From: an uncultured Acidobacteriota bacterium
Lineage (GTDB): Bacteria > Acidobacteriota > Vicinamibacteria > Vicinamibacterales > 2-12-FULL-66-21
Direction: 5' to 3'
NCBI GenBank assembly: GCA_963740275.1
Contig: CAVUDT010000004.1
Coordinates: 638,247 to 702,246 of the forward strand
Length of the DNA stretch: 64,000 bases
Made by a program: the position numbers and the translations under genes. The notes under the pieces were generated by a model. The model worked only from the letters and a program-made list of their open reading frames with translations, had not been told where the DNA came from and made no database searches. Below are positions 6,994 through 53,723 of the stretch, one piece after another. Position 1 is the stretch's first letter, and every line of letters begins with the position of its first letter.

Positions 6994-8270
<1,277 letters not shown>

Positions 8271-15945: not shown

Positions 15946-17331
15946 CTACTCAGCAAAGCACGCAATGCCCTTCTTCCAACCCATACTCGCCAGGCGATTG
16001 AACTCCGCAACCCGATCTTTCGGGTCTATCTGGCTGCTGCCCGTTCTCGGGATATGGTCCTCCCGGCCATCGACATAACCCAGCGCCGAGACGCGCGCCG
16101 CGACTTCACGATCGAGTTGCGGTCGTGGTCTCGACGAACCGTCCAGCCGTTCGTCGAAGTCGCGCAGACGGTCGAGCATGGCGGCCCCGATCGCCTGGTG
16201 CTGGTGAAGCACATCGCGTTGCTCGCGCGGATCGCTGATCAGGTCGTAGAGTTCCGGACGTGGAGCCTCAATCACTTTGTAGCGATCGTCGCGCAGCGAG
16301 CGCAGCCGTGCCCACCCGAATCGCTCTGGATACAACGACTCAGCGTAGACATCGAGTCGGGGATCAGGTCCGCTGCCGGTGGCGAGAGGCACCAGGCTGA
16401 CGCCGTCCACACCGGTGGTGGGCAAACCGAAGAGCTCCAGAATGGTCGGCATCACGTCCACCACGCGGGTGATGGCATGGATCCGACCCGGAGGAATCCG
16501 CGGGCCACGCATGACGAACGGCACATGCAACGCCTCATCGTAGAGGAACAGCCCGTGCGATTCCTCCCCATGGTCTCCCAGTGACTCACCATGATCACCG
16601 ACGACCACCACCAACGTACTTTCCAGCTGGTTGCGGGTCTCGAGAGTCTCGATGACGCGCAACATCTGCGCATCCTGGAACGCAATCGCTGCGAGATAAG
16701 GGTCGGCATAGCGTCGCAGGTAATCGTCTGGCAGATCGTAGGGCCGGTGCGCGTCATACAGGTGAATCCATACAAAGAACGGTGACGCGTCTCGGCCTCC
16801 GAGCCACGCCACCGCACCGTCCACGACCTCATTTGCGCGCCGGCGCGCGCGAGCTCGTCCCTCGCATGGGGCCCTGGAACCCTCGTCGTACACCGCGAAC
16901 CCTTGTTCGAGGCCTCGGCCCTTTGCCAGCACCCCCGAGGCCACGAAGGCCGCTGTCGCAAGTCCGCGCTCGGTCAGGACCTCGGCCAGCGTCTGGAAAC
17001 CGGCTGCGAGGGGCGTGCCGCCGTTATCTCGAACCCCAAGCCGTGGGGGATAGAGCCCGGTGAAGAGCGTTGCGTGCGAGGGGAGTGTGAGCGGAACCGC
17101 CGCGAACGTTTGCTCGAAGACTGCCCCCTCGGCCGCGAGCCGATCGAGCGCGTTCGTTTCGACGCCGGCGAATCCATAGGGGGGCAGCCGATCGGCCCGG
17201 ATGGTATCGAGGGTGATCACCAGCAGATTACGTGGACGCGGTGCCGGATCGTGCGCTGGTCCCCGCAACGACGGAATCACCATGGTTGCTGCGACCGCGA
17301 CGAGAGTCAGGAGACGGCGGCGAAGACGCAT
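15946..17331 (-). CDS. Sulfatase-like hydrolase/transferase (alkaline-phosphatase superfamily), secreted
   Basis: 461-aa ORF. NLLVITLDTIRADRL metal site. The nucleophile motif reads TLPSHATLFTG (Thr and His where formylglycine sulfatases have CxPSR). GDHGESLGDHGE. Confidence 0.8.
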   Translation of the reverse strand: MRLRRRLLTLVAVAATMVIPSLRGPAHDPAPRPRNLLVITLDTIRADRLPPYGFAGVETNALDRLAAEGAVFEQTFAAVPLTLPSHATLFTGLYPPRLGVRDNGGTPLAAGFQTLAEVLTERGLATAAFVASGVLAKGRGLEQGFAVYDEGSRAPCEGRARARRRANEVVDGAVAWLGGRDASPFFVWIHLYDAHRPYDLPDDYLRRYADPYLAAIAFQDAQMLRVIETLETRNQLESTLVVVVGDHGESLGDHGEESHGLFLYDEALHVPFVMRGPRIPPGRIHAITRVVDVMPTILELFGLPTTGVDGVSLVPLATGSGPDPRLDVYAESLYPERFGWARLRSLRDDRYKVIEAPRPELYDLISDPREQRDVLHQHQAIGAAMLDRLRDFDERLDGSSRPRPQLDREVAARVSALGYVDGREDHIPRTGSSQIDPKDRVAEFNRLASMGWKKGIACFAE

Positions 17332-17340
17332 GCCATGGTC

Positions 17341-18459
17341 CTATCGCCGCTGCATGTCGAACCCGTGGCCGTCTGCCGAGCAGAGGGCGGCGTAGTCTGG
17401 CTCGAAAGGATAGTCGTAGCCGTCGACCACGTTGATTGCGCCGGTGAGCCGACCGGAGATCCCGGACTGCGTGCCCTGCGCAGTCACGATCCCGCTTATG
17501 AGCAACGTGCGGGCTTCGCTCAACCGCTCGGCGAGATCGTGCCCCACAAAGTAGTAGTAGGGATCGTTGAACATGTCGATGTCCCCGACGATGGCGAACT
17601 GGACCAGGCCGGTTGCATCGACAAAGCCCGAGAACCTGTTGCCGCGATCGCCCGTCGAGATGAACTCAGCGCCGGTCAGCGTCACACTTAGACGGAAGCC
17701 GTCTTGTGAGACCGTCGCTACGTAGCCACGATTTCTCGCGGCGGCAGGCAGCGTCTGTCCGTAGCGACAAGGCGCCGCCGTAATGGTGAGCGCATACGTC
17801 CCTGAAAAATCCACCACCGGCTGTTCCGGAACCAACTCGAGGTCGAAGGTCCGGTCCTCAGCGACATCGAGGGCCTCGATCCTGTTGGCATAGCCTTCTT
17901 TCTGTGCATGGAGCCGGATCGGTCCGCTGACACCGTACAGCGCGTAGCTTCCGTCTGGACTGGTGACCGCGGTGAGGCCGGATCCAACTCCGGCTATCAC
18001 CGTCACAGCAACGTCGCGAAGCGCGATCCCGTTGACCGAAAACCGGCCCGTGAGCCGGTGCGTCCCTGCTGGCAGAACCATCATCTGCGCCGCCCGGCTC
18101 CACGACTGGTATCTGGCGATAACGTCAGCCTCACCGACCGCGAGACCTCGGGCGACGCCCGCTGCGCTGATCTCGAGCACGCGATCGTTCGAGGTGCGCC
18201 ACACGGCCGTCGCGGTAACGTCCTCGACCGAGCCGTCGTTCCGGACCGCAGTCATCGTGAGCTGGGTCGATTCGCCTGGGGCGATCATCGAGGGCCCGCC
18301 AAGTTCGACACGCACGACAGCTGGCGCCTGGGGCACGGGCGGAGGACTGGTCACCGGGGGACTGGTCACCGGGGGACTGGGGACGGTCGGGCTCTTGTCG
18401 CAGGCCGCAAGTGCGCCGGCCAGTATTGTCAGCGCCAGGGCTTGCGTGATGCGCCGCAT
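17341..18459 (-). CDS. Lipoprotein with Big_2-like and CarboxypepD_reg-like domains
   Basis: Frame of ORF 17341..18516, start at ATG 18459 (MRRITQALALTILAGALAAC lipobox). SPPVTSPPVTSPPP linker. Ig-like segment APGESTQLTMTAV...VTATAVWRTSN. 9 nt upstream of the sulfatase-like gene. Confidence 0.6.
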   Translation of the reverse strand: MRRITQALALTILAGALAACDKSPTVPSPPVTSPPVTSPPPVPQAPAVVRVELGGPSMIAPGESTQLTMTAVRNDGSVEDVTATAVWRTSNDRVLEISAAGVARGLAVGEADVIARYQSWSRAAQMMVLPAGTHRLTGRFSVNGIALRDVAVTVIAGVGSGLTAVTSPDGSYALYGVSGPIRLHAQKEGYANRIEALDVAEDRTFDLELVPEQPVVDFSGTYALTITAAPCRYGQTLPAAARNRGYVATVSQDGFRLSVTLTGAEFISTGDRGNRFSGFVDATGLVQFAIVGDIDMFNDPYYYFVGHDLAERLSEARTLLISGIVTAQGTQSGISGRLTGAINVVDGYDYPFEPDYAALCSADGHGFDMQRR

Positions 18460-18714
18460 CCCGCGCCTTGGAAACACGGTCCGTGCTTGTCGTCTTTTCG
18501 CCATGGTGCTCCTCACTTACTAAAGCGGAAAGGAGCGACAAAAAGTCGGGCGTCGGGAGAGAGCGGCCGGACGTCAGGTGAGGCGCCTCAACCGTGAGAC
18601 ACGGAACTCTTCATTCTTTCAGGCGGTAACCGCGGTCATCCTGTCCAAACATCTGGAAGGGCTCCGGAAGGCTTAGAATGCCGGGGACGCGCGCCTGCGG
18701 CACGGCGACTGCCC

Positions 18715-21661
18715 ATGACAAATGAACGCTGGATGCGGACCGAGGAGCTGTATCACGCGGCGCTCGCCCTGCCGGTGGCCGAGCGTGACGCGTTTCTGGC
18801 CAAGGCTTGTCGAGACGACAACGCGCTACAACATGACGTTGCATCGCTTTTAAAGGAGGCGGTCGAGGATGCCTTCCTCGCCCGGTCGCCGATCGTTACT
18901 CCCGCGCATCTGCTTGCCGATCTTGCACCCGGTGAGATGACCGGCCGCAGGCTCGGGACGTATCGCCTCGGAGCCCTCCTCGGTGCCGGCGGCATGGGCG
19001 ATGTCTATCGAGCTCGTGACACGACGCTGGAGCGCGACGTCGCAATCAAGATTCTGCCCCGCGCCTTCACCAGCAACCCGAATCGGCTCGCACGCTTCGA
19101 GCGCGAAGCTCGCCTGCTCGCGGCGATGAATCATCCGCACATCTGCGCCATTCATGGGATCGAAGAGGTGGAGGGCCTCCGGTTCCTGGTGCTGGAGCTG
19201 GTGGAGGGCAGGACGCTCGCCGAGACGCTCGCGGAAGTCCCTCGACGATCGAGCGAAAGCGCCGGCCTGCCGCTTGAAGACGGACTGCGCATTGCCCAGG
19301 AGGTCGCGAACGCGCTGGAGGCGGCGCACGAGAAGGGGATCATCCATCGCGACCTGAAGCCCGCGAACATCATGATCACGGCGGCCGGCGCGGTAAAGGT
19401 TCTGGATTTCGGGCTCGCGAAGTCCGTCGCCAGCGAAGGGAAGACCGGAGCGTCTAGAGACGGCAGGATTTCCGGCGGCACGGCGCTCGGCGCCGTGATG
19501 GGCACGGACGCCTATATGAGCCCCGAGCAGGCATCCGGCAAGCCGGTCGACCGGCGTACGGACATCTGGGCGTTCGGCGTCGTCTTGTTCGAGATGGTCA
19601 CCGGCCAGCGGCCGTTCGTCGGCGAGACCGTCACCGAGACGCTCGCGGCAGTGCTGAAAACGGAGCCGGACTGGGCCTCGCTCCCGTCCACCGTTCCTCC
19701 CGAACTCCAGCGACTCCTTCGCCTGTGCCTCCAGAAAGACCCGAAGCGCCGGCTCCAGTGGATCGGTGACGCCAGGGTCACGATCGAGGATCTCCTGAGT
19801 GGCGTCGCGCTTGAGCCGGTCGCGGCGACGCATCCGGTCGACCGTCGCGGAGGCCGAGTGGCGTGGATCGTGGCTGGTGCGCTCGCGGCAGCCCTTGCCG
19901 GCACCGTCGCCTGGAACCTCAAGCACCAGGAGTTGCCCGTCACACGACTGGGTCTGACACTTCCCACCGGTCAGCGGCTCGATGGAAGCGGCGGCGGGCA
20001 CATTCTCGCGCTCTCTCCGAACGGGGCCCGGATCGTGTTCGTCGCACTGCCCCTTGCCCTCTACTTGAGACCGATGGGAACGGACGAGATCACGACAATC
20101 CGTGGCACCGAAGGACTTCGGACCCTGAGAGAGCCGGTCTTCTCGCCAGATGGCGGCTCGCATCGCGTTCTACGCAGACCAGACCCTGAAGAGGATTCCG
20201 GTCGAAGGGGGCGTGCCGGTGACGATTTGCCCGGCCAAGACCCCGTTCGGGATGAGCTGGGGACCCGACGGTATCGTGTTCGGCCAGGGCGCTGAAGGCA
20301 TCATGCGAGTGTCGCTCGACGGCGGCGCACCGGTCCGGATCGTCAGCGTCCAAGTCAATGAAGCCGCCCACGGGCCGCAGGTTCTGCCCGGCGGGCAGCA
20401 GGTGCTCTTTACCCTGGCGACCGGCACCGCGGCCGATCGGTGGGACAAAGCTCGAATCGTGGTGCAGTCGCTGATATCCGGGGAAAGGACCACCATCATA
20501 GAAGATGGCAGCGACGCTCGCTATGTCCCCAGCGGTCACATCGTGTACGCCGTCGGCGGAAGGCTGTTCGCCGTCGCATTCGATCAGCGCGGAGTGAGGG
20601 TCACAGGGGATCCCGTATCGATCGTTGAAGGCGTCAGGCGATCGGCGGCGAATTACACCGGCGCCGTCAACGCCAGCATCTCGAACAACGGTTCACTCAC
20701 TTACGTCCCAGGTCCGCTCACGCCGGCCGATGCCTTGATGAACGTCGCCATGGTCGATCGAAGAACCGGCAAGGTAGACGTGCTGGATCATCTTCCACCC
20801 GGCCGGTATGCGTCGCCGCGCGTGTCGCCGGACGGAAAACGGCTGGCTTTCACCACCGAGGACGGCAGGGAGGCCGCCGTCTGGACCTATGAACTCTCCG
20901 GGACCATGCCGCCGCAGCGGGTCACCTTCGGCGGAAACAACCGGTTTCCAGTGTGGACATCGTCCAACCGCCTTGCGTTTCAGTCGGATCGCGCCGGCGA
21001 CCTCGCGATTTTTCAGCAATCCGTCGGCGGGAGCGCGCAACGCGTGACCACGCCGGACCAGCAGACAACGCACGCCCCGGAGTCGTGGTCAGAGAAGACC
21101 GGCACCTTGTTGTTCAGTGTCGCCAAGGGATCTGATTTGTCGCTGTGGACGCTCTCGCTGCTTGATGGGAAGAGGTCGCTGTTCACCGTCATCACTCCGT
21201 CGTCGGCCTCCTATGCCACCGGTGCGGTCTTCTCACCTGACGGTCGATGGGTGGCCTACGCCAATGCGATCCGGAGCGCGACGACGATCTACGTCCAGCC
21301 ATTCCCGCCCGATGGTGACCGGAAGTATCAGCTCGGTCGGAAAGGGGCCGACGCGCCGCACGAACCGGTCTGGTCCCGGGATGGCAGAGAAATCTTCTAC
21401 AACCCGAGGCTCGGCGGCTTCGAGGCCGTCAGCGTGACGACGCAGCCCACATTCGCCTTCGGGACTCCCGTCCCGCTGGCGAGAACGTTCCTGATGGGCC
21501 CTCCAGGCGCTCGAACCAACTACGACATCACCGCGAACGGGCAGTTCGTCGGTCTGATTACAGCGGGAGGCACGCAGTACGACACCGGATCCGACGATAG
21601 GATCGAGGTGGTGCTGCACTGGCTCGAGGACGTCAAGGCGCGGACCCGGGCCGCGAGATGA
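18715..21661 (+). pseudogene. Ser/Thr protein kinase with TM segment and TolB-type beta-propeller, frame disrupted as sequenced
   Basis: ORFs 18715..20295 and 20150..21661. Kinase motifs [29 protein letters not shown]. Propeller repeats SPDGKRLAF, SPDGRWVAY. Removing one nt in gatggcggctcg (20149-20160) gives continuous ...PVFSPDGARIAFYADQTLKRIP. Confidence 0.85.
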
Positions 21662-24566
21662 CTCGCTCCCTGAAACTATCGCTCTGTCTCATGCTGCTGA
21701 TGTGCGGACGGGCAGGGGCCATGGCCCAGATGTCCGACGGATCGATCCGAGGAGAGATCCGCGATGTGCATGGCGTTCCGCTTGCGGGTGTGAGGGTGAC
21801 CGCTACCAGCGCCGACGTTCCCTTGCCGCTTGTCGTCATCACCGGGGCAGAGGGCGCCTATCGCCTGTCGAACCTCATTCCCGGACGCTACGCGCTGACC
21901 GCCGAGATCAGCGGTTTTACCGGGCAGGTGCGTGAGAATGTCGTCGTTCACGCCGGCCTGAACCTGACTATTCACTTCGTCCTGGCCGTCGGAGCCGTGC
22001 GGGAGACGATTACCGTCAAAGCTGAGACGCCGCTGCTCGAGACGTCGAGCGCGGGCCAGGCCGTGAATGTCAGCGGCGAGCTCCAGCGGTCCCTGCCGCT
22101 GGCCGCGCGGAAGCACTGGTCGGAGGTTTTGCGGCTGGTACCCGGAGTTGTCTCGACCGACACCACCGCCGACCAGGCGTCGGTGTTCTTCGTCCATGGC
22201 GCTGGAGTGGTGTCGGGATCGACGATCGTCGATGGCGCCGACATCAGTTCTGCGGTCAATCCGTGGACCGGGTATCTGGCGTTTCCCGAGGACGCCGTGG
22301 CCGACGTACAGATCCGGACGAGCGGGCTGGATGCGTCCGCCCCACTGGGGATGGGGGCCGCGGCCAACGTTGTCATCAAGTCCGGCACCAATCGATACCA
22401 GGGAAGCGGCACCTGGGCATACACCCCGAGGCGGTGGGTCAGCGACAACACACCTGCTGCGGCACGAGCCAGACGATGACGGTCAACCAACCGGAGGTGG
22501 CGCTCGGCGGACCGTTGCGGCAGGATCGGGCGTGGTTCTACGGAGCGTATCGCCGGCGGGTCGGGACCCTTGGTTTGAGTCGTCCGGCGGATCAGATTGC
22601 CGACATGAAGGCGCTCGTCCCCGGCTTCGAGCCGTTCGACAACGGGATCAGCGCGAACATCGTCCTGGCCAAGATCACGGGACAGATCCGGCCGACGCAA
22701 CAGCTCTCGGGTTTCTACAATTACGACGCCACGACGAACGAGAAAGATACCGCCTTCAACACCAGCAAGTTCACCGAGGTCGTCACCGGGGGACATGCCA
22801 TCTCGATGCGCCTGTCTTCGGCCTGGTCGAACTGGTTGGCGAGCCGGCTGACGGTCTCCTGGAACGACAAGGGGAGCATCCGATCGTTGGTGCGCGGGCA
22901 GGCTTCAGAGCCGTCCCGGCCTGTTTACCTCAGGGTGTTCCCCTCGGCCGGAACGTTGGTGGGCGGCACGCAGCGAGCCACGCTCGACAACTCGGCCAGC
23001 GAGACCCAATCTCCTTATACCAAGTGGACCATCGCCGGAGACGCCACGATCTACCGCACCGGGTGGCTCGGAACGCACGACGTGCAGGTGGGCGTATCGC
23101 TCCAGCCGAGCATCCATCGGCAAGACTCCATCGTCTACGCCAACGGCGGGTTCGCGCTGGAGGATCTCGTGCTTCTGGATGCGGCGAACGCGTCAGCCGG
23201 GACCAGGCCGTTCCACCGCCGGTTCTATGACTCGTCCGGCGGAGTCCTGGCGGACGGGCACATCTCTGACAATGCCGTCTATCTGCAGGACCTCTGGCGT
23301 CCCACATCGGGGGTCACGATCAGTCTTGGGCTCCGCCTCGATCAGATCCGGCGCACCGACGACCTGGCCGGGGAGCAGTTGCAGAACAGCCTCGAGTTCG
23401 GGCCGCGGCTCGGTGTGAACTACGTGCTGACGTCGGATCAGCTCAACTCCGTGCGCGCGTCCTTCATGCGGCTGCACGATCCACCCACCGTCAATCACCT
23501 GTCGGCCAGCGGTGCGGGTAGTCAGGGCGTGGGCGCCCAGACAGTCGGGTTCGACGACATGTATGACACGGATGCGGACGGCATCTTCGACAAGATGCTC
23601 TCCACTCCCGCGGCTTCGGCGAACAACCCGAACCGGATCATGGACTCGCGTTATCACCAGCCATACGTCAACGAGTGGGCGGCAGGGTACCGTCGTCAGC
23701 TCCCGCGCCAGAGCAGCGTGGATGTCGGCTTCATCCATCGCGACTTCCGGGACCGGACGGCACTGGTCGAGCGGAACGCGATCTATGACGGGAAAATGTT
23801 CGTGGGACTCCGGAACGAGAACCAGAACGAGATTTTTCTGGTGACCAACAACCGGTGGAATTGGCCGGTCTACAGCGCGCTGGAAGTCATCGCCACCAAG
23901 CGGACCGCTCGAGCCCAGTTTCTGGCGAGCTACACCCGGGCCTGGTCACGCCTCGACGGCACGTGGCAGCCGAACGACCCCGCCGCATTCATCCAGCCCG
24001 ACGCATTCGCTTTCGGCAGAGGGCTTCCAGTCAATGACAACCGGAACGCAACGCTGAACAATGCGTATGGCGACGGCAGTACGGGCCTGTGGTCCGGACC
24101 TGAGTGGATGGACCATGTCGTCAATCTCTCGGGTGTCTATCGCGCGCCATGGGACATCGTCGTCGCCTCCACCTACACGCTCCTGAAGGGGTGGTGGTCA
24201 GGCCCGATCGTGGCGCGCCTCCCGGCCGCGGATCCGCAATTCGGCCCGCCCACCGTCACGTTGTCGAACGGAAGGGAGGTACCGAACCCGCTCGCGACGA
24301 CGACGCGTTTCGCCTTTGACACCAGGAGCGAGGGACAGTTTGCGCTGCCGGCGCGACACTATGTGAATCTGCGAGTCGGACGCGTATTCCGCCTGCACGC
24401 CGGCATCCGGCTCGAGTTGGACCTGGACATTTTCAATGTGCCGAATCTTGCAGGTTTCCAGGGATTCCTGCCGGGCGCACATCAGCAATTCAGCACGAAC
24501 TTCGGCAAAGGGGGCAACGTGCAACCACCGCGCACCGTGCAGTTGGGTATCCGGTTCACATTCTAG
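21658..24566 (+). pseudogene. Oar-like TonB-dependent receptor family OMP (CarboxypepD_reg N-terminal domain), frame disrupted as sequenced
   Basis: ORFs 21658..22479 and 22263..24566. Signal peptide, then GSIRGEIRDVHGVPLAGVRVTAT...YRLSNLIPGRYAL. Ends GIRFTF. The frames join near 22450-22465 (consistent with a 1-nt deletion). ATGA overlap with the kinase stop at 21658-21661. Confidence 0.8.
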
Positions 24567-24592
24567 CGTCACTACCCGCACCGCTGGCAGCG

Positions 24593-25090
24593 TCAGGCCT
24601 CATGGGAGCGCATCTCGCGCCGGAGCCAGACCCTGGCGAGCTGCCAGTCGCGCATGACCGTGTCGCGCGACACCGCCAGCACTGAAGCGGTTTCCTCTAC
24701 GCTCAACCCGCCGAAGAACCGAAGTTCGACGACGCGGCTCTTCCGCTGGTCAAATTTCGCGAGTGCCTCGAGCGCGTCGTCCAGCGCCACGACATCATCA
24801 CCCGGTTCGCCGGTGACGGCGAGCGCCTCGTCGAAGCTGACCTGGACGGCTCCACCGCCACGTTTCTGGGAGCCACGTGTCCGGGCGTGGTCGACGAGAA
24901 TCCGCCGCATCAGCCGCGCCGACACGGCGAGAAAATGTCCCCGGTCCTGCCACGCGACAGCGCCTGCTTCGACCAGACGGACATACGCCTCGTTCACCAG
25001 CGCCGTCGCTTGGAGGCTGTGGCCGGCACGTTCCCCCGCCATGCAGCGCCGCGCGATTCGATAAAGCTCCTCATGGACGAGCGGAATCAA
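24593..25090 (-). CDS. ECF sigma factor of the PF07638/TIGR02999 type (start uncertain)
   Basis: ORF 24593..25090 (TTG start). LVNEAYVRL, RFFGGLSVEETASVLAVSRDTVMRDWQLARVWL. Homologous N-terminal sequence (ITDDQPEVTALLLQWAQGDEAALERL) continues in frame upstream to 25174 with no canonical start. An in-frame ATG at 25195 is followed by TAA at 25177-25175. Confidence 0.75.
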   Translation of the reverse strand: MIPLVHEELYRIARRCMAGERAGHSLQATALVNEAYVRLVEAGAVAWQDRGHFLAVSARLMRRILVDHARTRGSQKRGGGAVQVSFDEALAVTGEPGDDVVALDDALEALAKFDQRKSRVVELRFFGGLSVEETASVLAVSRDTVMRDWQLARVWLRREMRSHEA

Positions 25091-25268
25091 CCGCTCCAGG
25101 GCGGCCTCGTCGCCCTGCGCCCATTGGAGAAGGAGCGCCGTAACTTCGGGTTGGTCGTCCGTGATGCGGCGATTTTAGTCTTTCCGTTGCCTCATTTCAC
25201 AGGCGCTTTCCGCTCTATAAGCAGGAAGAAAGCAGAAGAGGTCCAACGATCGACCCAAGGAGGGCGAC

Positions 25269-26887: not shown

Positions 26888-28390
26888 TTAATTTCTTCCC
26901 AGTCGCCTCTGCACCGCCGCCGTCACCTCCACCACCGGCACGGTGGTCAGGCACCACTCCTCCTGCCGGCACCGGCGATCGTAGTGGCAGCCACACGAAG
27001 TGAACCGCGACACGGTGATGTCGTCGGCGGACCACGGGCCGTTGCGCGCCGGATCGGTCGGGCCGAAGATCGACACGATCGGCGTGCCGACGGCGGCGGC
27101 GATGTGCAATGGGCCGGTGTCGCCGGAGACCATCAGCGCGGCGCTCCGGCAGATCTCCACCAGGTCGGCGAGCCGCGTCGCGGGCGCGAGGACGGCTGTG
27201 CCGTTCGAGCTTTCGATTACCGCGCGGGCGAGCGGTTCCTCGCCAGGCCCCCACAGCACGAACGGGACGAACCCGCGCACCTCGCGGAGGAAGGCCGCGA
27301 GCTCGCCGAAGCGATCCGTGTACCACCGTTTGTTCGGCCACGCCGCCCCCGGGTTCAAGACGGCGAACGGTATCCCCCCGGCCGCCGCGACCATCGCGTC
27401 CCGCGCCGGGGACGGCAGCGACAGCAGCGGAAACTCCACCGCCGGCTCCCTGATGCCCAGCGCTTCGACCAGCCGGAGGTTCTTGTGAACGACATGACCG
27501 TGCGGCGAATCGGCGGCCGGATCCAACGACTCCGAATAGAACGGCCGGGCGGTCTTCTCGCGCAGGTGCCAGATCGAAAAACCGAGCACCCGCTTCGCCC
27601 CGGACGCCCGCGCCAGCACCGCCGACTTCATCAGCCCCTGGAAGTCGAGCGCCACATCGTAGCGCGCCGCGCGCAGCGCCCGTGCCGCCGCCAGCCACCC
27701 GCTCACCCTCGGCTTCTCGAGGACGATGACCCGGTCCAGGACCGGGACCAGGTCCAGGATCTCGCGCCACTTCGCGTCGACCAGCCAGTCGATCCGCGCC
27801 GACGGGAAAGCGGCGCGAATCGCCGCGGCGGCCGGAATCGCATGGACGATGTCGCCGAGTGCCCCGAGCCGGACGAGCAGGATGCTGGATGGTGCAGGCC
27901 CCTGCACCCCGGCCGGCGGCATCATCGGCGGATCCGCCGCGAGCAGATCACGGGTCGAGTGGTCCTTCGGGTCGCCGACGATCGCGACCCGGCCGCCGTA
28001 GGCCCGGACCACCTCGCGTTCCGGCACGGTCTCGGCGGTGTAGTCGGTCCCCTTGCAGTGAACGTCCGGCCGCAGCAGCGTGAGCAACTCGGTGACCGTC
28101 GGCTCGGCAAAGATGGTCACGTAGGTCACGCCACGCAGGGCCGCAACCAGTTCGGCGCGGGCGGCCGCCGGCAGGATCGGGCGCCCGGGACCCTTTGCCC
28201 CGGCGGTCACATCGTCGTTGATCGCCACCACCAGCCGGTCAGCCTCCGCGGCCGCGGCCTGGAGATAGCGGACGTGACCGACGTGCAACAGGTCGAAGAT
28301 GCCGTTGGCGAAGGCGATGGTGCGCCCCTCGCGCCGATCGGCTGCGACCGCCGCCGCCAGGCGCTCGCGTGACAGGAGCTTCTCAACCAC
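26888..28390 (-). CDS. Fusion protein: D-beta-D-heptose 1-phosphate adenylyltransferase domain (HldC/RfaE-II) + GT9 heptosyltransferase (WaaC-like)
   Basis: Single 500-aa ORF. N-terminal part: [39 protein letters not shown]...HCKGTDY (cytidylyltransferase fold). Pro-rich linker. Then [24 protein letters not shown]...[25 protein letters not shown] (GT9). Confidence 0.8.
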
Positions 28391-29405
28391 GGTCGGCCAG
28401 GATCGCGGCGCGCAGCTCGTCGGCCGAGACGGTGGCGGTGCCGCGTTTCATCACCACGATCCCGCCGGCGTAGTTGGCGAGGTGCGCCGCCTCCTCGAAC
28501 GTCCCCCCGGCAGCCAGGGCCAGCGTCATGGTGGCGATGACGGTGTCGCCGGCGCCGGTGACGTCGGCGATCTGGTCCGAGCCGTGGATGGGGATGTGTC
28601 GGGTCTTCTTGTCGCGCTCGAACAGCGCCATGCCGCGACTGCCCCGGGTGACGAGCACCGCCTTGGAGCGGGTCCGGTCGAGCAGCTCGCGGCCGGCGCG
28701 CTCGAGCACGCGGACGTTCTCGCCGATGCTCACCCCGAGCAGCGCCTCGACTTCCGATTCGTTCGGCGTGCAGGCCGTGAGGCTGCGAAACCGGTCGAGT
28801 GCGTAGCGCGAGTCGACGAGCAGCGGAGCTCCCTTGGGCATCAGCTTGCGGGCGGCGGCGACCAGCGCCGGCGAAACGAGGCCGGTGCCGTAGTCGGAGA
28901 CCAGCATCGCATCGCAGCGGGACGCCGCGCGCAACAGCTTGCCTTCCACCGCCTGGCGATGCTGACCGCCTGAATCGTTCGCCGCTGCCCGGTCGATCCG
29001 CACGACCTGCTGCTTGGCCGAGTGCACGCCGCCGGCCAGGATCCGCGTCTTGGTCGGCGTCCGATAGTCGCGTGGCCGCACCACGCCGGCCACGTCGACG
29101 TTGCGGAGCACCTCCACCAGCCTGTCCCCCGCCGGGTCGCGCCCGGCGAGTCCGACGATGACCGGCCTGCCGCCGAGTGCGGCGACGTTGCTCGCGGCGT
29201 TGCCGGCCCCGCCCGGCACGATCTCGGTCGAATCGTAGTTGAGAATGAGCACCGGCGCTTCGCGGGAGACCCGCGCGATCTCGCCATAAATGAATTCGTC
29301 GACGAGCAGGTCGCCGAACACCGCCACCCGGAGGCCGGCGAAGTCATCGACGAGTGCCGTCAGCCGTTGCCCGTCGGCCGGTGCGGTTCTCCCGGGGTTG
29401 GTCAT
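28383..29405 (-). CDS. hldA: D-beta-D-heptose 7-phosphate kinase (RfaE domain I, PfkB family)
   Basis: 340-aa [61 protein letters not shown]. 8-nt overlap with the downstream fusion gene. Confidence 0.85.
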
Positions 29406-30421
29406 ACCTGGCGGTCCATCCGGCGCGTCACGGCGCCGTACACGTCATCCACGCTGATTCGCTTCATGCAGCGGTGATCGATCGGGCACTCCCGCAGCAT
29501 GCATGGCCGGCAGAAGACCTGGTGGAGGATCACATCGTGGTCGCCGATCGGCGCCGTTTCCCGTTCGTTCGTCGGGCCGAAAATCGCCGTGACCGGTACA
29601 CCGACCGCGGCCGCGACGTGCATCGCGCCGGAATCGTTCGAGACGAACGCCCGGCACGCCTCGAGCACCCCGAGCAGCAACCGCAGATCGGTCCGGCCGA
29701 TCAGGTTGGTGACCTTCACGTCCGGCGGCAGCGTGGATTCTATCGCACGGCCGGCTTCGCGATCGGCCGCGGCGCCGACCAGCACGCAGGCCGCGCCCCG
29801 TTCACGAACGACCCGGACGGCGACCTCCGCCACGCGGTCGGTAGGCCAGCGCTTGGCGTGGCCGTAGGCCGCGCCCGGGGCAAATCCGACGATGGTGGAC
29901 CCTGGCGCGATCCCACATGCTTCGAACAGCCGCGATGCACGCTCACGGGTAACGCCGGTGACCGTGATTCGCGGCGGCGCCGCCGGCGCGTCCATGCCCA
30001 GCCCTCGTACGAGCTCGAGGTAATACTCCGACTGGTGCAGCCCACGGCGCGGCCTCGCCACCACCCGGGTCAGCAGCGGCCCTCGTCCGCCCGCCGCGTA
30101 TCCCCAGCGCGCGGGGATGCCGGCTCGCCTTGCCGTCCACGCAGTGCGAAACGAGTTGGTGAGAAGCAGCGCGGTGTCGAAGCTCCCCTCGCGCAGCTGC
30201 TTCGTTTCCTTGTCCTTGTCGAGGACGATGATCTGTTGCGGGCGGACGCCGGTCTGCTCTTCGAAGATCGGCGTCACCGCTGCCGTCCCGGCGACGGCCA
30301 GGTGTGCCTCCGGGAACATCGATCGTACCGACGCCAGCGCCGGGAGCGCCATGACCACATCCCCCAGCCAGTTCGGCAGCCGGACGAGCAGGCGATGAGG
30401 CGGCGCGTCAGCCCTGGTCAT
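29402..30421 (-). CDS. waaF: ADP-heptose:LPS heptosyltransferase II (GT9)
   Basis: Frame of ORF 29402..30466, start at ATG 30421. LLVRLPNWLGDVVMALPAL, NDSGAMHVAAAVGVPVTAIFGPT, CRPCMLRECPIDHRCM. Confidence 0.8.
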   Translation of the reverse strand: MTRADAPPHRLLVRLPNWLGDVVMALPALASVRSMFPEAHLAVAGTAAVTPIFEEQTGVRPQQIIVLDKDKETKQLREGSFDTALLLTNSFRTAWTARRAGIPARWGYAAGGRGPLLTRVVARPRRGLHQSEYYLELVRGLGMDAPAAPPRITVTGVTRERASRLFEACGIAPGSTIVGFAPGAAYGHAKRWPTDRVAEVAVRVVRERGAACVLVGAAADREAGRAIESTLPPDVKVTNLIGRTDLRLLLGVLEACRAFVSNDSGAMHVAAAVGVPVTAIFGPTNERETAPIGDHDVILHQVFCRPCMLRECPIDHRCMKRISVDDVYGAVTRRMDRQV

Positions 30422-34832: not shown

Positions 34833-35972
34833 TGCGCAGCGTCAAGGAGATGGACCTGCGCGGCAAGCGCGTGTTCATCCGGGTCGATTTCAACGTCCCG
34901 ATGAAGAATGGGGCGATCACCGACGACACCCGGATCCGGGCATCGCTGCCGACCATCGAGTACGTGCTCGGGCAGGGGGCCAGGACCGTCATCCTTGCCT
35001 CCCACCTCGGGCCGGCCGAAGGGGAAGCCCAACCCGGAGTTCTCGCTCAAACCGGTCGCGACCCACCTCTCGGAGCTGCTGGGCAAGCCGGTCGCCTTCG
35101 ACCAACCGTCGGCAGAGGGGGTCGTGCTGCTCGAAAACCTCCGGTTCGACCCGCGCGAGGAGGCCAACGACCCGGCGTTCGCCGCCGAGCTGGCGGCGAT
35201 GGCCGACGTCTACGTCAACGACGCGTTCGGGTCGGCGCATCGGGCGCACGCATCGACCGAGGGGATCGTGCGGCACGTGAAGGAGTCGGGGGCGGGCCTG
35301 CTGATGGCGGCCGAGGTCGAGTATCTCGGCCGGGTGCTCGAGGCGCCGGACCGTCCGTTCGTCGCGATCCTCGGCGGCGCCAAGGTGTCGGACAAGCTCG
35401 AGGTCATCCAGAACCTCGTCCCACGCGTCGACGCGCTGCTGATCGGCGGCGCCATGGCCTACACGTTTTTCAAGGCGCGCGGGATGCACGTCGGCAAGTC
35501 GCTGGTGGAGGAGGACCTGCTCGACGCCGCGCGGGAGGTCGAGGAGCAGGCCCGGCAAAGAGAACTCCGTTTCGAGCTTCCGCTCGATCACGTGACGGCA
35601 CCCAAACTCGAGGCCGGGGCGCCCGCCGAAGTACTCGACGTGGCGGATCCGGCGATTGGCGATAGGATGGGGCTCGATATCGGGCCTCGAACCATCGCCC
35701 GCTACACCGAGGTCATCCGCACCGCCCGGACAGTCATCTGGAACGGGCCGATGGGCGTTTTCGAGATCGATGCCTTTGCCGCCGGCACGATCGCCGTGGC
35801 GAAGGCGGTCGCCGGCGTCAAAGGGACCACGATCATCGGCGGCGGTGACTCGATCGCGGCCGTGGCCAAGGCCGGGGTCACCGATCGGATCACGCACATC
35901 TCGACCGGCGGCGGCGCGTCGCTGGAGTTTCTCGGCGGACGCAAGCTGCCCGGAGTCGTAGCGCTGGGATGA
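34832..35972 (+). pseudogene. pgk: Phosphoglycerate kinase, frame disrupted as sequenced
   Basis: N-terminal part: GTG 34832 (V)[22 protein letters not shown]...ILASHLG, in the frame of ORF 34076. The rest is in ORF 34908..35972 ([16 protein letters not shown]...GGGDS...STGGGASLEF). Observed ctcgggccgg (GGG at 35009-35011). Removing one G restores SHLGRPKG. Confidence 0.9.
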
Positions 35973-36788: not shown

Positions 36789-36879
36789 CTTGAACAGGAG
36801 TTCAGGAGTTCAGGAGAACTCTCTCTCAGAACTGTTCCCTTGAACTCTTGACCTCATGTAGAAAGTCAGCACCCGGGAC
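36789..36879. repeat. Solo copy (about 90 nt) of the AGGAG/CAGGAG-rich intergenic element family
   Basis: cttgaacaggagttcaggagttcaggagaactctctctcagaactgttcccttgaactcttgacctcatgtagaaagtcagcacccgggac. Aligns along its length with 41474-41562 in the same orientation, and its 5' half aligns with the 3471-3950 units. Confidence 0.65.
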
Positions 36880-36888
36880 CGCGCCGCC

Positions 36889-39354
36889 ATGCCGTTTCTC
36901 CCCGAGAGCATCGTCCACGCCCTCCGGTTCTGTCGCCGCGACCCATCGGTTGCTGCCCCGGCGGTAGCGATTCTGGCCCTCGGGCTCGGCGCCAACCTCG
37001 CGATCTTCGGCGTCGCGTACGCCGTCCTTCTCCGGCCGCTTCCTGTCGCTGACCAGCAGTCGCTGGTGATCATGTGGGAACGCGCCGAACAGCGGGGAGT
37101 CTCGGTCTGGGAGGTCTCCTACCCCAACTTCATCGACTGGGGATCGCGGAATCGGTCCTTCACTGATCTGGCTGCGACTGGCTCGATCAACTGGTCGCTT
37201 CGCCTGGTGCAGAGAGACGGGCCCGTCATCCTTCCCTTTGCCGCCGTTTCGGGCACGTTCTTCGACGTGTTGGGCGCACGGGCGGCGCTGGGCCGGACGC
37301 TGACGAGAGCGGACGATGCTCGGGGGAGCCCGGGGGTCGCAGTTCTCAGCGACGAAACGTGGCGAAATCAGTTCCAGGCGGACCCGGGCGTAGTCGGCCG
37401 GACGGCGATGATGGACGACGGTGCGGGCCCATCTGCGGTGACGATCGTCGGCGTGATGGCGCCGGAATTCGACTATCCACGCGGAGCCGCACTGTGGTTG
37501 CCGATCGCGCCCACGCTCGCGCGACTCTCTGTTGCAGAGGGCTACGACATGCTGGCGGCCCGCGATCTCGGGATTCTGTACGTCCTCGGACGCCTGAGAC
37601 CCGGTGTCACCCTGGCCCAGGCACAGGCCGACATGGACACTCTCGTCGAAGGCCTGACTGGGACGGGGAAGCCCGGAACCGGCCGGTCCAGCGTCGTGAC
37701 GCCGCTCGCCGATCACATCTTCGGACAGACACGTCCGGCGCTGCTCCTGCTCATGGCCGCCGCCGCAGTTGTGCTGTTGCTGGCCTGCGCGAATGTGATC
37801 GGATTGCTCCTCGCCCGGCAGTCGGCGAAGCGTCGTGAGCTGGCGATTCAGATCGCGCTGGGCGCGGATCGGTGGCGCCTGATACGGCAGTCAGTCGCAG
37901 AAGGCGCGGCAGTGGTGGTTGCCGGGATGGCCGCCGCCGTCCTCCTCGCGTTCTGGTGCGTGCCGATCCTGACGGCAGTTGCGCCCGAAACCGTGCCGCG
38001 TCTCAATGAGGTCACCCTGCGGACGCCCATGCTCACCGCGTTCGGCCTGGGAATCGGTGTGCTGGCGGCTCTCGCGTGCGGCATCTTCCCCGCCGTCGTC
38101 ATAGGACGGACTCCTGTGGGTCTTCTCCGACGTGAGGAAGCGACGATCCGGCCGACGTCGCCCATGGTCCGCAATGGCCTGCTGGTTGCTCAGACGGCGC
38201 TGGCAGTCGTGCTGCTCGTCGCCGCGATGTTGACGGTCCGGAGCTTTCACGCCATTCAACGAGTTCACCTCGGTTTCGATCCCGCCGACCTCGTGACTGT
38301 GGACGTGCTGGCGCCAGCCGGAACCTACGACAAACGCGAGACCAACACGCGGTTCTACCGGGAGGCGATCGATCGCGTCCGGCAGCTGCCCGGCGTCTCG
38401 GCGGTGGCCGGCATCTACCTGCGGCCATTTGAATTCGGACCGATCGGATCAGGTGTGGCGGTCGTGCTCGAAGGGCAATCGCCGCGCGACCGTGAGGCGT
38501 GGAGCATGAATCCGTCGCTCAACGCCGAAGCGATCACGCCCGACTACTTCAAGGTGATGAAGATTCCGATTGTGCAGGGACGTCCGTTCACCGATCGCGA
38601 TGCCGAAGGTGCACCTCCCGTGGTGATCGTCAGCCTGTCGGCTGCCCGCCGCCTCTGGCCCGGTCAGGATCCGATTGGCAAGCGACTCATCGCCAGCTAC
38701 GACCGCCCGGACGGGGACTGGCAGACAGTGGTCGGCGTAGCGGGGGATGCCCGATACCGGGGCCTGACAGAACCGACGTTCGATCTTTACAAGCCGTATC
38801 TGCAATCCGAAGACGCCGTCAAGCACCTCATCGTGCAGGGATCAGTGGACCCTTCGACTTTTCTTGGGCGGCTGCGATCGGAGATCCGTTCAGTGCACCC
38901 GGCGGCCGTAGTCGACGAGATCCGCCCGATGCGCGCGGTCGTCGACCGTCAGATGGCACCATGGCGCTTCGCGGCGCTGCTCTTTTCGTTGCTGGCCGTA
39001 CTCGGGGTAGTCGTGGCAGTGATCGGACTGTACGCGCTGCTCTCGCGTCAGGTAGCGGAACGCACGCGTGAGATTGGTATTCGAATCGCGCTGGGAGCGC
39101 ACCGCCAGCAGATCGTGCGATTCTTTGCCATGCTGACGGGCCGCGTCGTGGCGACAGGACTGCTCGTCGGTCTGATCGCCGCGTTCATCGCGAGCAGAAG
39201 CATGAACGCACTGCTTTTCGGCGTCGAGCCGACCGATGCTCTGACCTATACGCTCGTCTGCGCGCTCCTGATTCTTGCCGCGACCGCAGGAGCGTACTGG
39301 CCGATCCGCCGTGCGACGACTGTCGATCCCATTGTCGCGCTCAGGCGGGACTAA
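36889..39354 (+). CDS. ADOP-family ABC-type permease (duplicated MacB/FtsX-like, no ATPase domain)
   Basis: 821-aa intact ORF. N-terminal ALRFCRRDPSVAAPAVAILALGLGANLAIF. Two FtsX-type 4-TM modules. C-terminal RRATTVDPIVALRRD. Confidence 0.85.
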   Translation: MPFLPESIVHALRFCRRDPSVAAPAVAILALGLGANLAIFGVAYAVLLRPLPVADQQSLVIMWERAEQRGVSVWEVSYPNFIDWGSRNRSFTDLAATGSINWSLRLVQRDGPVILPFAAVSGTFFDVLGARAALGRTLTRADDARGSPGVAVLSDETWRNQFQADPGVVGRTAMMDDGAGPSAVTIVGVMAPEFDYPRGAALWLPIAPTLARLSVAEGYDMLAARDLGILYVLGRLRPGVTLAQAQADMDTLVEGLTGTGKPGTGRSSVVTPLADHIFGQTRPALLLLMAAAAVVLLLACANVIGLLLARQSAKRRELAIQIALGADRWRLIRQSVAEGAAVVVAGMAAAVLLAFWCVPILTAVAPETVPRLNEVTLRTPMLTAFGLGIGVLAALACGIFPAVVIGRTPVGLLRREEATIRPTSPMVRNGLLVAQTALAVVLLVAAMLTVRSFHAIQRVHLGFDPADLVTVDVLAPAGTYDKRETNTRFYREAIDRVRQLPGVSAVAGIYLRPFEFGPIGSGVAVVLEGQSPRDREAWSMNPSLNAEAITPDYFKVMKIPIVQGRPFTDRDAEGAPPVVIVSLSAARRLWPGQDPIGKRLIASYDRPDGDWQTVVGVAGDARYRGLTEPTFDLYKPYLQSEDAVKHLIVQGSVDPSTFLGRLRSEIRSVHPAAVVDEIRPMRAVVDRQMAPWRFAALLFSLLAVLGVVVAVIGLYALLSRQVAERTREIGIRIALGAHRQQIVRFFAMLTGRVVATGLLVGLIAAFIASRSMNALLFGVEPTDALTYTLVCALLILAATAGAYWPIRRATTVDPIVALRRD

Positions 39355-41580: not shown

Positions 41581-42948
41581 CTACTTCTTCTTCGCCGGCG
41601 CGGCGGCCGTGAGCAGGACGTCCCCCGGGCGAAGTTGACCCTCCACGAGCTCGGTCCAGTTGTCGTCCGCCAGCCCGGCCTCGACGGCGATCGGCACGAA
41701 GCGTCGATTCTCGAACTTCCACACATAGGCCTGCCTGATGCCGCTGTTCGATTTTTCCCGGGGCAATCGTGGAGGGTCGAGAATGGGAGGGTCCTGGTCC
41801 ACCTCGGCGAAGGCCTCGGCCGATGGACGGAACGCCAGGGCCTTGTTCGGGATGCGCACAACTCCCTGCCGCTCGCGACCAGCTAGATCGACGATCGCAG
41901 TACCACCGGGAGGGACCGCTCCTTCGGTGTTGTTCACATCGATCACGGCGGTGTAGGTGACGACGCCAGCTGACGAAGCAGTTGCTGTGGATGGCTGCGA
42001 TGGTGGTGCAGCTGCGCCGACTGGGGCGCCGGCTGGTGAGGTTGCCGCCGGCGTGGTTGGTGTTCCTGGCGGGCTGGCGGTGCCGGACGTGCCCGTCGGG
42101 GTCGGCGTGCCCGACCCGGCTCCCTGGCCCGAAGCGATCGCCTGCTCGACAACCGGCTGCAGCCGCACTGATGACACCGTGCCCGCGAACGTTTTTCCCG
42201 CGATCGACTCGACCTGGATGCTCACCCGGGATCCCGGCCGGACGCCGCCGACATCGGATTCGGGGATCTCCGCGAGCAGCTGCATCTGCCGCAGGTCCGC
42301 GACCGTGAACAGAAGCGGCGTTTGAACCGAGGCGGAAACCGTCTGCCCGACCTCGACCTCTCGGCTGATCACGATGCCATCGATCGGGGAGCGGACAATC
42401 GTGTGGTTCAGACCGACGCGGGCCTCTGCAACCGAGGCGCGCGCAGCATCAACGCCGGCGACGGCGGCCTTCACAGCGGCCGCCGCATCCCTTGCGGTCA
42501 ACCGTGCGAGATCGAGCTCCGCCGTGGGCACCAGGTCGTCGGCTGCCAGCTCCTCGACGCGATCGAGCTTCGTTCTTGCGTCGTCAGCTACAGCCCGCAG
42601 CCTGACAAGCTCGGAGCGCGACTGGGCGAGCCCGGCGCCGGCCTCGATCAACCGTGCCTCGTACAAGGACGGGTCCAGGCGCGCCACGATCTGTCCTGCC
42701 TTCACCGTGTCGTTGAAATCCACTTCGACCGACTGGATGGTGCCTGAGACCTGAGAGCCGATGGCGACCGTTCGCATCGGCTCGAGCGTGCCGGTGACCA
42801 TGATGCGACGGACGATCGGCCCGCTGGTGACTTCAGCGGTCGCGATTTCAATCGGTTCGGCTCCCGTGCGGCGCAGGAGCCCCACGGCGGCGAGCCCCAA
42901 CAAACCGGCCACCGCAACCAGCACGACCGTGCGGTGCTGCTTCACCAT
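41581..42948 (-). CDS. Periplasmic adaptor subunit (HlyD/MacA family) with a Pro/Thr/Ala-rich low-complexity insertion
   Basis: Frame of ORF 41581..42972, start at ATG 42948. TM anchor. GTLEPMRTVAIGSQVSGTIQSVEVDFNDTVKAGQIVARLDP (lipoyl-like), coiled-coil region. The insert GQGAGSGTPTPTGTSGTASPPGTPTTPAATSPAGAPVGAAAPPSQPSTATASSAG is encoded around 41962-42135. Confidence 0.8.
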   Translation of the reverse strand: MVKQHRTVVLVAVAGLLGLAAVGLLRRTGAEPIEIATAEVTSGPIVRRIMVTGTLEPMRTVAIGSQVSGTIQSVEVDFNDTVKAGQIVARLDPSLYEARLIEAGAGLAQSRSELVRLRAVADDARTKLDRVEELAADDLVPTAELDLARLTARDAAAAVKAAVAGVDAARASVAEARVGLNHTIVRSPIDGIVISREVEVGQTVSASVQTPLLFTVADLRQMQLLAEIPESDVGGVRPGSRVSIQVESIAGKTFAGTVSSVRLQPVVEQAIASGQGAGSGTPTPTGTSGTASPPGTPTTPAATSPAGAPVGAAAPPSQPSTATASSAGVVTYTAVIDVNNTEGAVPPGGTAIVDLAGRERQGVVRIPNKALAFRPSAEAFAEVDQDPPILDPPRLPREKSNSGIRQAYVWKFENRRFVPIAVEAGLADDNWTELVEGQLRPGDVLLTAAAPAKKK

Positions 42949-43033
42949 CCGACCAACATACGCCCGAACCACGCGTAACTGATGATGTAGCCGAACCAGT
43001 GGTTTACGAGACTAAACTCGACCGGAACCGCCT

Positions 43034-43059
43034 CGAGTATCCCGGTCTTGTTAACACTC
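43034..43059 (+). promoter_or_regulatory. Candidate ECF-type promoter (GGAAC-N16-GTCTT) upstream of the sigma/anti-sigma pair
   Basis: GGAAC at 43034-43038, GTCTT at 43055-43059, 20 nt before ATG 43079. This is pattern resemblance to generic ECF promoters only. Confidence 0.25.
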
Positions 43060-43078
43060 CAGCCCCGGCGAGCGTCCT

Positions 43079-45313: not shown

Positions 45314-45349
45314 CGGCAGGCGCGTCACGAAGAGGCTACACTTCCACCC

Positions 45350-53677: not shown

Positions 53678-53723
53678 GGATCACCTGCGATCTCGACACG
53701 ACAGCGCATAATACTTCCGCCAG

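Follow-up and report, generated by a model that had tools for sequence, protein, structure and literature searches.

A kinase-linked ECF43-type sigma factor clustered with TonB-dependent receptors in a clade of Acidobacteriota

The subject of this study is a 64,000-nucleotide stretch of DNA, hereafter the window (positions 638,247 to 702,246 of contig CAVUDT010000004.1, assembly GCA_963740275.1), from an uncultured soil bacterium of the Acidobacteriota, in which a Hanks-type Ser/Thr kinase gene, an Oar-type TonB-dependent receptor gene and a convergent gene for an extracytoplasmic function (ECF) sigma factor lie side by side (Table 1). We favor, with moderate confidence, the view that this region encodes an acidobacterial ECF43-type switch, in which a sigma factor is activated by a kinase, and that in this clade the switch is clustered with a TonB-dependent receptor that would be its transport partner or its output. 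The link between sigma factor and kinase is in itself established biology and not new, because the sigma factor displays the QATA motif of the ECF43 kind and the kinase shares its N-terminal part with PknS, a proven sigma kinase. The variants appear to be undescribed, namely the propeller sensor, the steady link with a TonB-dependent receptor and the rearranged operon; our search of the searchable literature, which was not exhaustive, found no connection between ECF sigma factors, Hanks kinases and TonB receptors.

The sigma factor comprises regions sigma2 and sigma4 only, and matches both PF07638 (Sigma70_ECF; 1e-57, 195.5 bits against a cut-off of 21.1) and TIGR02999 (219.4 bits against a cut-off of 126.15). 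A co-encoded Hanks kinase is the hallmark of ECF43 sigma factors (PMC13147305), which are devoid of the acidic sigma2.2 motif (DAED/DxxD) and carry instead an uncharged motif with a conserved threonine, of consensus QTTA (PMC13147305, PMC8999054). Phosphorylation of this threonine, found within STTA in EcfP and QATE in EcfK, switches these sigma factors on (PMC13147305, PMC8999054). In the window the acidic motif is likewise replaced, sigma2.2 reading HSLQATALV (HSLQATALVNEAY), and the Hanks kinase is encoded 2.9 kb away. All relatives of this sigma factor contain Q/E/R-x-T-A at this place, whereas the acidic residues are kept by an unrelated ECF sigma factor in L036, one of the loci that we designate by such handles. 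No sigma factor of solved structure matched that of the window by sequence. Pfam and NCBIfam scans of the flanking open reading frames, not exhaustive for the small ones, found no anti-sigma, FecR or zf-HC2 domain, as an earlier note made from the letters of the window had stated, and no FecR-type anti-sigma factor occurs among the called genes of the related loci either.

The kinase is built, in order, of an N-terminal extension of about 75 residues, a Hanks kinase domain (Pkinase, 7e-52, with catalytic motifs readable in the translation), one transmembrane helix (VAWIVAGALAAALAGTVAW) and a periplasmic multi-blade beta-propeller region in which Pfam recognizes PD40 blades. When the first 80 residues (18715-18954) were compared with all sequences of the PDB, the sole match was 9EED (7.7e-6), residues 5-63 of the kinase aligning with residues 8-66 of PknS. 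The entry 9EED is PknS(1-364) from Xanthomonas citri, a kinase shown to phosphorylate EcfK, and its 83-residue N-terminal segment has been noted as conserved in Xanthomonadaceae, with its role left unexplained. The AlphaFold2 model of an orthologue of 65% identity (P0001; mean predicted local distance difference test 80.7) begins with a three-helix bundle, followed by the kinase domain, a transmembrane helix at 384-402 and an all-beta region at 411-966 with some 56 strands, which may be read as about 14 PD40 blades. The kinase thus has the Hanks core and N-terminal extension of the PknS/PknT type, and the model of P0001 adds the single transmembrane helix and the extracytoplasmic sensor. Among solved structures TolB is the best sequence match of the blades (1e-10); with 75.5 bits against a cut-off of 343.15 and few blades matched, the protein falls far short of the TolB equivalog TIGR02800. 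A Foldseek search of the PDB with the full-length kinase model returned kinase domains only and no propeller.

Two surveys bear on the pairing. Within 80 propeller-kinase loci from GTDB genomes, which hold 131 kinase genes, the extension tracks the sigma factor: a sigma gene lies within 3 kb of five of the six kinases that possess the extension, against one of the 125 that do not (Fisher p = 1.2e-7). The second survey was centered on 80 sigma loci from JGI metagenomes, and in 59 of the 68 that could be assessed an extension-bearing kinase stands directly downstream of the sigma gene, typically after 17 nt; hence sigma-then-kinase is the canonical order, and the convergent sigma gene of the window is a rearrangement. 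The earlier note had described this sigma family as kinase-associated, and the QATA motif, the PknS homology and these counts all agree with it. The sensor domains of the sigma-linked kinases vary, and propellers occur only in the closest relatives of the window. The PknS-like extension, which in Acidobacteriota is found almost only in kinases encoded beside a PF07638 sigma factor, is a cross-phylum marker of sigma-linked kinases and a candidate sigma-docking element.

The receptor consists of a signal peptide, a CarboxypepD_reg N-terminal extension (PF13620; 2.3e-16, residues 29-109), a plug, a large barrel (OMP_b-brl_4, 2.3e-20; PF00593 in most orthologues) and a C-terminal phenylalanine, the Plug match of 20.7 bits being under the Pfam cut-off of 23.9 (E = 6e-4). 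A stretch resembling a TonB box (ETITVKAETPLLE) was seen by eye only. The Oar subclass is defined by a PF13620 extension in front of the plug, a domain described as distinct from the signaling domain (PMC6434023), and the extension of the window receptor is of this kind. The Pfam and NCBIfam matches thereby bear out the identities that the earlier note had given to the three genes. The same note had suggested looking for an N-terminal extension of signaling type: the Pfam scan gave only CarboxypepD_reg, Plug and OMP_b-brl_4, that is, no STN domain (PF07660), and the orthologues are likewise without STN.

Kinase and receptor genes are tightly joined, since the kinase stop and the receptor start overlap as ATGA at 21658-21661; the receptor stop (24564-24566) is 26 nt from that of the convergent sigma gene (24593-24595, minus strand). 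The earlier note was right on both counts. This layout, with the receptor co-directional and tightly coupled, recurs in L001 (83% nucleotide identity) and in L086 and L002 (kinases 62-72% identical), whose junctions read TAG-ATG, TGATG or a GTG 6 nt past the stop, so that the four loci sharing this layout, the window included, are all tightly coupled; in L002 the sigma gene stands on the far side of the lipoprotein-sulfatase pair. At seven further loci (L084, L085, L089, L101, L169, L170 and that of protein P0010), with kinases 52-60% and sigma factors 69-76% identical to those of the window, an Oar-type receptor gene is convergent with the kinase gene and lies within tens of bases of its 3' end, except in L101 where about 0.8 kb intervenes. 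The receptors of this second layout, termed recB, are 62-68% identical among themselves and 23% identical to the recA type of the window; the typing covers the loci with DNA to compare, the P0010 receptor being Oar-like and untyped. At L083 (6742-9924, minus strand) an orthologous sigma gene is followed after 40 nt by a gene for a classical TonB-dependent receptor (Plug and barrel, no N-terminal extension), and the locus also encodes a 135-residue CarboxypepD_reg protein. L016 has retained recB though identity amounts to only 54% for its sigma factor and 33% for its propeller, and in L170 the propeller is 27% identical and recB 66%.

Altogether, a full Oar-type receptor gene abuts the 3' end of the kinase gene in 11 of 12 close loci, and the classical receptor occupies the twelfth. 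For the baseline we used a broad Oar hidden Markov model (HMM) built from diverse Oar-type proteins, which detected any Oar-type gene in 5 of the 80 GTDB propeller-kinase loci (1.17 Mb), adjacent in one or two; of the 80 sigma loci only L089 and L101 hold one, and both belong to the close clade. Co-localization beyond chance, by which the earlier note had proposed to judge its idea, is therefore found within the close clade (11/12 against 5/80). A case apart is L012 (10001-14354), in which a propeller kinase with neither extension nor nearby sigma gene precedes a co-directional Oar-type receptor, the only such case in about 75 loci. Regarding the propellers themselves, tblastn gave no high-scoring segment pair for L089, L101, L133, L162, L163 and L169; the first five were found to have a propeller by HMM and L169 by Pfam, the HMM result being decisive where tblastn disagreed.

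It could be argued that the receptor is a mere neighbor, carried along by inherited synteny with no functional tie, given that Oar-type receptors are numerous in Acidobacteriota. The link is indeed confined to one clade, recA orthologues elsewhere adjoin amidohydrolase genes or another receptor gene, and most kinases of this sigma family carry other sensor domains and have no receptor nearby. However, three receptor types in differing orientations accompany orthologous sigma-kinase pairs, recB persists in L016 despite the divergence of sigma factor and propeller, the base rate of Oar-type genes is only about one per 200 kb, a cis-element described below is common to the units, and two recB orthologues that were picked blindly both turned out to have kinase and sigma genes beside them. 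We thus hold simple neighborhood to be distinctly unlikely. On this comparison of loci, the association is real for this clade, where it persists though orientation and receptor type change, and it is not general to the receptor family, to propeller kinases or to the sigma family as a whole.

A more ambitious proposal, close to that of the earlier note, is trans-envelope surface signaling in the manner of FecIRA, in which the binding of substrate by the receptor would be relayed to the kinase propeller through direct contact with the CarboxypepD_reg extension or the plug, and the kinase, in place of FecR, would phosphorylate the sigma factor. TolB-type propellers serve as modules that bind proteins, translational coupling would fix the stoichiometry of kinase and receptor, and the receptor stays at the kinase 3' end through rearrangements and even through its own replacement. 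The N-terminal extension is moreover positioned as STN is in transducers (PMC6434023). Against this, the locus has neither an STN domain nor FecR, recA orthologues exist without kinases, and the L083 module is paired with a plain TonB receptor free of any N-terminal extension. Between the two layouts, the receptors beside orthologous kinases share only 23% identity, a non-orthologous replacement, when the propellers share 52-72%, which argues against a specific docking pair of receptor and propeller; in L170 the situation is reversed, and neither pattern suggests a co-evolving interface. We therefore regard direct contact as unlikely. The same low chance is given to its broader form, a second kind of cell-surface signaling in which a propeller kinase would learn of substrate or transport state from Oar-type and sometimes classical receptors and would switch on an ECF43-type sigma factor by phosphorylation, with the kinase in FecR's place and a module that duplicates and swaps receptors (recA and recB).

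The kinase and receptor genes, which the earlier note had taken as uninterrupted, are each broken in the window by a single base that it overlooked. The kinase passes from frame 1 (18715-20295) to frame 2 (20150-21661), 'PVFSPDG' ending the first part and 'ARIAFYADQ' resuming the second, and alignment with L001, L002 and L086 reveals a surplus C at 20161 (TCG[C]ATC) that is absent in all three. The receptor passes from frame 1 (21658-22479, followed to about 22460) to frame 3 (up to 24566), and in the same alignment one base is absent between 22463 and 22464. The homologues of the kinase are single polypeptides of 880-990 residues which span both halves with 92-100% coverage, and those of the receptor (41-71% identity, about 960 residues) are single proteins covering both halves as well. 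We also weighed a pair of separate genes, one for the kinase and one for a free-standing propeller protein, and rejected it because of these single-protein homologues and because the second reading frame opens inside a blade and lacks a signal peptide.

One may then ask whether the cluster is decaying, the frameshifts being real, the sigma factor orphaned and nothing functional. Two adjacent genes each contain one disabling single-base indel at a site that is not a homopolymer, the public record calls the receptor as a truncated product of 696 residues on a 963-kb contig (P0121, 100% identical), and the receptor orthologue of L086 has an in-frame stop. Yet the breaks are not peculiar to these two genes: in the same 64 kb, the gene of phosphoglycerate kinase (34905-35972) changes frame near 34990, '...RVDFNVP...ASHLG' being in one frame and the remainder in the next, and three or four of five MacB/FtsX permease genes appear split into two overlapping reading frames. 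Phosphoglycerate kinase is an essential glycolytic enzyme. L001 and L086, which stem from one ENA series of long-read assemblies with Flye-style contig names, are broken at other positions of the same genes, and on either side of each shift in kinase and receptor both codon usage (G+C at third codon positions 0.77-0.78) and protein conservation are undisturbed. Since phosphoglycerate kinase and the permeases are also split, and since relatives of the same series break elsewhere, the two frameshifts are most likely assembly errors and the genes would be intact in the organism; that the whole cluster is degenerate seems to us highly unlikely. In L086, the in-frame stop lies at 7923-7925 of the locus and the kinase is frameshifted at about residue 327; this stop is not an indel, and therefore the breaks in these assemblies are not all indels.

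The start of the sigma gene deserves particular attention. The earlier note had placed it at the ATG at 25195, where it cannot be, as an in-frame TAA follows at 25177-25175. The first ATG, GTG or TTG in this frame after the stop is the TTG at 25090, which would remove some 28 residues that are conserved as protein (mostly synonymous changes relative to L002) and lie inside the Pfam domain. A nonsense mutation was considered and rejected: what keeps the stop in all orthologues is its place within a -10 hexamer, that of the sigma-70-type promoter listed in Table 1; this hexamer contains the TAA, and 6 nt separate it from ATC. The pattern TA[GA]AAT-N5-7-AT[TC] is kept in 12 of 18 related sigma loci, three more of which have an ATG at the same position, and the same run from -10 box to ATC or ATT is present in L001, L002, L085, L086, L169 and L170. 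The conserved ATC at 25165-25163 is accordingly the probable start of the sigma gene; from the same pattern we infer that the transcript is leaderless, beginning at the A of this ATC (25165), and that the gene is transcribed by the housekeeping sigma factor rather than autoregulated. The sigma genes of this clade (window, L089-L104, L115, L169 and L170) have no ATG, GTG or TTG start and show the -10 box, about 6 nt and ATC or ATT, and more distant relatives have an ATG at the start position. These alignments suggest that leaderless mRNAs with AUC or AUU starts are a trait of the clade. Gene callers shorten such sigma genes, for example to 148-165 residues.

For the kinase-receptor operon, the earlier note had proposed an ECF promoter, GGAAC-N16-CGGTAA. 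The motif is present as described, but its role as a promoter finds no backing: the window holds 37 instances of the class GGAAC-N15-18-CGK, with 32.7 expected, and both halves are changed in the 83%-identical L001 (GGCGC and CCGCAA). Better supported as a promoter element by conservation is the TAGAAT located about 35 nt before the kinase ATG, the equivalents of which are TAGAAT in L001 and L084, TAGACT in L002 and TACAAT in L086.

A 24-nt element of consensus RAAGCGGRAA-N7-CGAAAAC is present twice in the window, one copy facing the kinase gene and the other the sigma gene, where it is upstream of the sigma promoter and partly overlaps it. With a matrix built from nine sites, the element was found upstream of the sigma gene in 28 of 72 metagenome loci, about four being expected at that threshold, upstream of recB in L084 (21.2 bits), L089 (24.5), L101 (27.5) and L085 (14.5), and upstream of the CarboxypepD_reg gene of L083 (17.1 bits); only one comparable match occurs in 1.17 Mb of other loci. 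A divergent envelope-protein gene usually starts 15-25 nt away from it. We rejected it as the -35/-10 pair of an ECF promoter, its boxes being about 13 nt apart, its distance to -10 hexamers variable and its orientation inverted at recB. The element marks the transcription units of the sigma-kinase-receptor module.

Several points weigh against the reading of the region as a sigma switch tied to its receptor. At its -10 box the kinase-receptor operon seems to be of the housekeeping type, and there is no sign that the sigma factor drives the receptor in the window. The 24-nt element is inverted relative to recB, stands at 11 to 23 nt from -10 hexamers, is lacking in L170 and, in L169, is not found upstream of recB; it may pertain to the divergent envelope genes or to another regulator. 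L087 and L088, which contain recA orthologues of 56-58% identity, have neither kinase nor sigma gene nearby, and no receptor was found in the available flanks of L133, L162 and L163, whose propeller kinases accompany more distant sigma factors. Finally, as the frameshift sites are not homopolymers, the shifts may be real mutations.

With these reservations, we retain the switch as the preferred reading and picture it as follows. The sigma factor would be made constitutively from its housekeeping-type promoter and would be intrinsically inactive, QATA having replaced the acidic motif of sigma2.2 that contacts RNA polymerase. The propeller of the membrane kinase, with its predicted 14 or so periplasmic blades, would sense a periplasmic cue and trigger autophosphorylation; the kinase would then phosphorylate the threonine of QATA and so allow the sigma factor to bind core polymerase. 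The Oar-type receptor, on the same mRNA as the kinase, would most likely be a transport partner or an output of the module, importing or handling material of which the periplasmic product is sensed by the propeller. Hybrid sensors of Bacteroides with periplasmic propellers control SusC-type transporters, to which we liken this role. Domain make-up, motifs, PknS homology, conserved synteny and shared cis-elements can be read directly from the loci; that phosphorylation takes place, what is sensed and which way information passes between receptor and kinase belong to our interpretation of them.

On the other side of the kinase gene, a divergent unit encodes a predicted lipoprotein and a sulfatase, and this pair is kept next to the kinase gene in L001 and L002. 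Lipoprotein, sulfatase and receptor together resemble a nutrient-utilization locus, and the pair may belong to one uptake locus with the receptor. The window, of 62-71% G+C, contains chromosomal housekeeping genes, namely those of PBP1, the delta' subunit of DNA polymerase III, the GAPDH-PGK-TIM series, KdtA, LpxL and KARI, and its relatives are metagenome-assembled genomes of Acidobacteriota, many labeled Vicinamibacterales. The five MacB_PCD/FtsX permease genes are clustered duplicates, orphan permeases of the duplicated type found in acidobacteria. The window also encodes a second, ordinary ECF sigma factor (Sigma70_r2 and r4_2; 43055-43603, plus strand), which is divergent from the gene of an HlyD-type membrane-fusion protein (41581-43011, minus strand) and unrelated to the module. 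At 26888-29444 (minus strand), a PfkB sugar-kinase reading frame overlaps the start of one for a cytidylyltransferase joined to a family-9 glycosyltransferase (heptosyltransferase), which may be an unusual fusion of the HldE/WaaC type or another frameshift.

Table 1. Positions of the features discussed, numbered along the window unless a related locus is named.
Feature	Position	Strand	Details
Divergent two-gene unit beside the kinase gene	15946..18516	-	Lipoprotein and sulfatase
Sulfatase gene	15946-17331	-	Downstream member of the lipoprotein unit
Predicted lipoprotein gene	17341-18516	-	Probable ATG 18504; lipobox LAAC; homologue in L002 has a weak Big_2 match
24-nt element, copy 1	18522..18545	+	AAAGCGGAAAGGAGCGACAAAAAG; faces the kinase gene, in the interval that separates it from the divergent lipoprotein gene
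GGAAC-N16-CGGTAA, candidate ECF promoter of the earlier note	18603..18629	+	Present, unsupported
TAGAAT, -10-like hexamer before the kinase gene	18674..18679	+	Conserved in relatives
Hanks-type Ser/Thr kinase gene	18715..21661	+	About 982 residues once repaired; open reading frames, Pfam, homologues
Oar-type TonB-dependent outer-membrane receptor gene (recA type)	21658..24566	+	About 967 residues once repaired; Pfam, orthologues
ECF sigma gene (PF07638/TIGR02999)	24593..25165	-	Convergent with the receptor gene; probable start; Pfam, NCBIfam
Promoter of the sigma gene (sigma-70 type), GTGAAA-17 nt-TAAAAT	25172..25200	-	Promoter consensus scan, 9/12 matches
24-nt element, copy 2	25193..25216	-	AGAGCGGAAAGCGCCTGTGAAATG; faces the sigma gene
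Intact permease copy	36862-39354	+	
Split-looking permease region	45314-47744	+	
Split-looking permease region	51259-53680	-	
Split-looking permease region	54555-57085	-	
Split-looking permease region	57726-60519	-	
24-nt element copies in relatives	L084 9477-9500; L089 8185-8208; L101 11960-11983; L083 13402-13425; L169 15391-15414		

Kinase-activated sigma factors have been proven recently (EcfP/PknT and EcfK/PknS), and the inputs of the kinases and the targets of the sigma factors are known in very few cases. The clade described here supplies a partner that is concrete and can be tested, namely a TonB-dependent receptor that stays by the kinase even when its type is exchanged, the classical receptor of L083 being a third type tied to the module; the question of input or output may thus be addressed in Acidobacteriota, an abundant and poorly understood phylum of soils. 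Two observations are of use beyond this locus, the PknS-like extension as a marker and the apparently leaderless sigma genes with AUU or AUC starts, which gene callers miss or shorten.

Among known systems, FecI/FecR/FecA resembles the locus in combining an ECF sigma factor, a TonB-dependent receptor and a single-pass inner-membrane protein with a periplasmic domain. It differs in that the window receptor has no STN and no FecR-type anti-sigma factor accompanies it, that the sigma factor belongs to the TIGR02999 family and is predicted to be activated by phosphorylation instead of release from an anti-sigma factor, and that no ECF-type promoter was identified before the window receptor. Like Oar of Myxococcus xanthus, the receptor has a signal peptide, a PF13620 extension, a plug and a large barrel (PMC6434023), a match of architecture only in which the window Plug is below the Pfam cut-off; Oar of M. 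xanthus must be present for the protease PopC to be secreted, and no kinase or ECF sigma factor is known as its partner.

The polysaccharide-utilization loci of Bacteroides make use of hybrid two-component propeller sensors, or of pairs of ECF sigma and anti-sigma factors, together with SusC-type transporters. They share with the window a periplasmic propeller sensor beside a TonB-dependent transporter with a CarboxypepD_reg-like extension, and a lipoprotein and a sulfatase nearby; the window, in contrast, signals through a Hanks kinase and an ECF sigma factor where the Bacteroides systems have an anti-sigma factor or a histidine kinase whose output is of the AraC type, and no SusD homologue was found at its locus. 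Compared with TolB, the propeller region has about twice the length, the model showing some 14 blades; it forms one protein with a kinase and stands outside any Tol-Pal context.

The comparison with EcfK/PknS of Xanthomonas citri and EcfP/PknT of Vibrio parahaemolyticus is the most instructive for the sigma-kinase pair. The window departs from both in its phylum, in its sensor, a tandem PD40 propeller and not tetratricopeptide repeats, in its sigma gene, convergent beyond the receptor and not next to the kinase, and in its linked genes, which encode a TonB-dependent receptor and envelope proteins whereas type VI secretion or polymyxin-resistance genes accompany the other two. All three nonetheless have an ECF sigma factor without a co-encoded anti-sigma factor and an uncharged threonine motif in sigma2.2 (QATA in the window, QATE in EcfK, STTA in EcfP), and PknS and the window kinase are both transmembrane Hanks kinases with homologous N-terminal extensions and an extracytoplasmic sensor.

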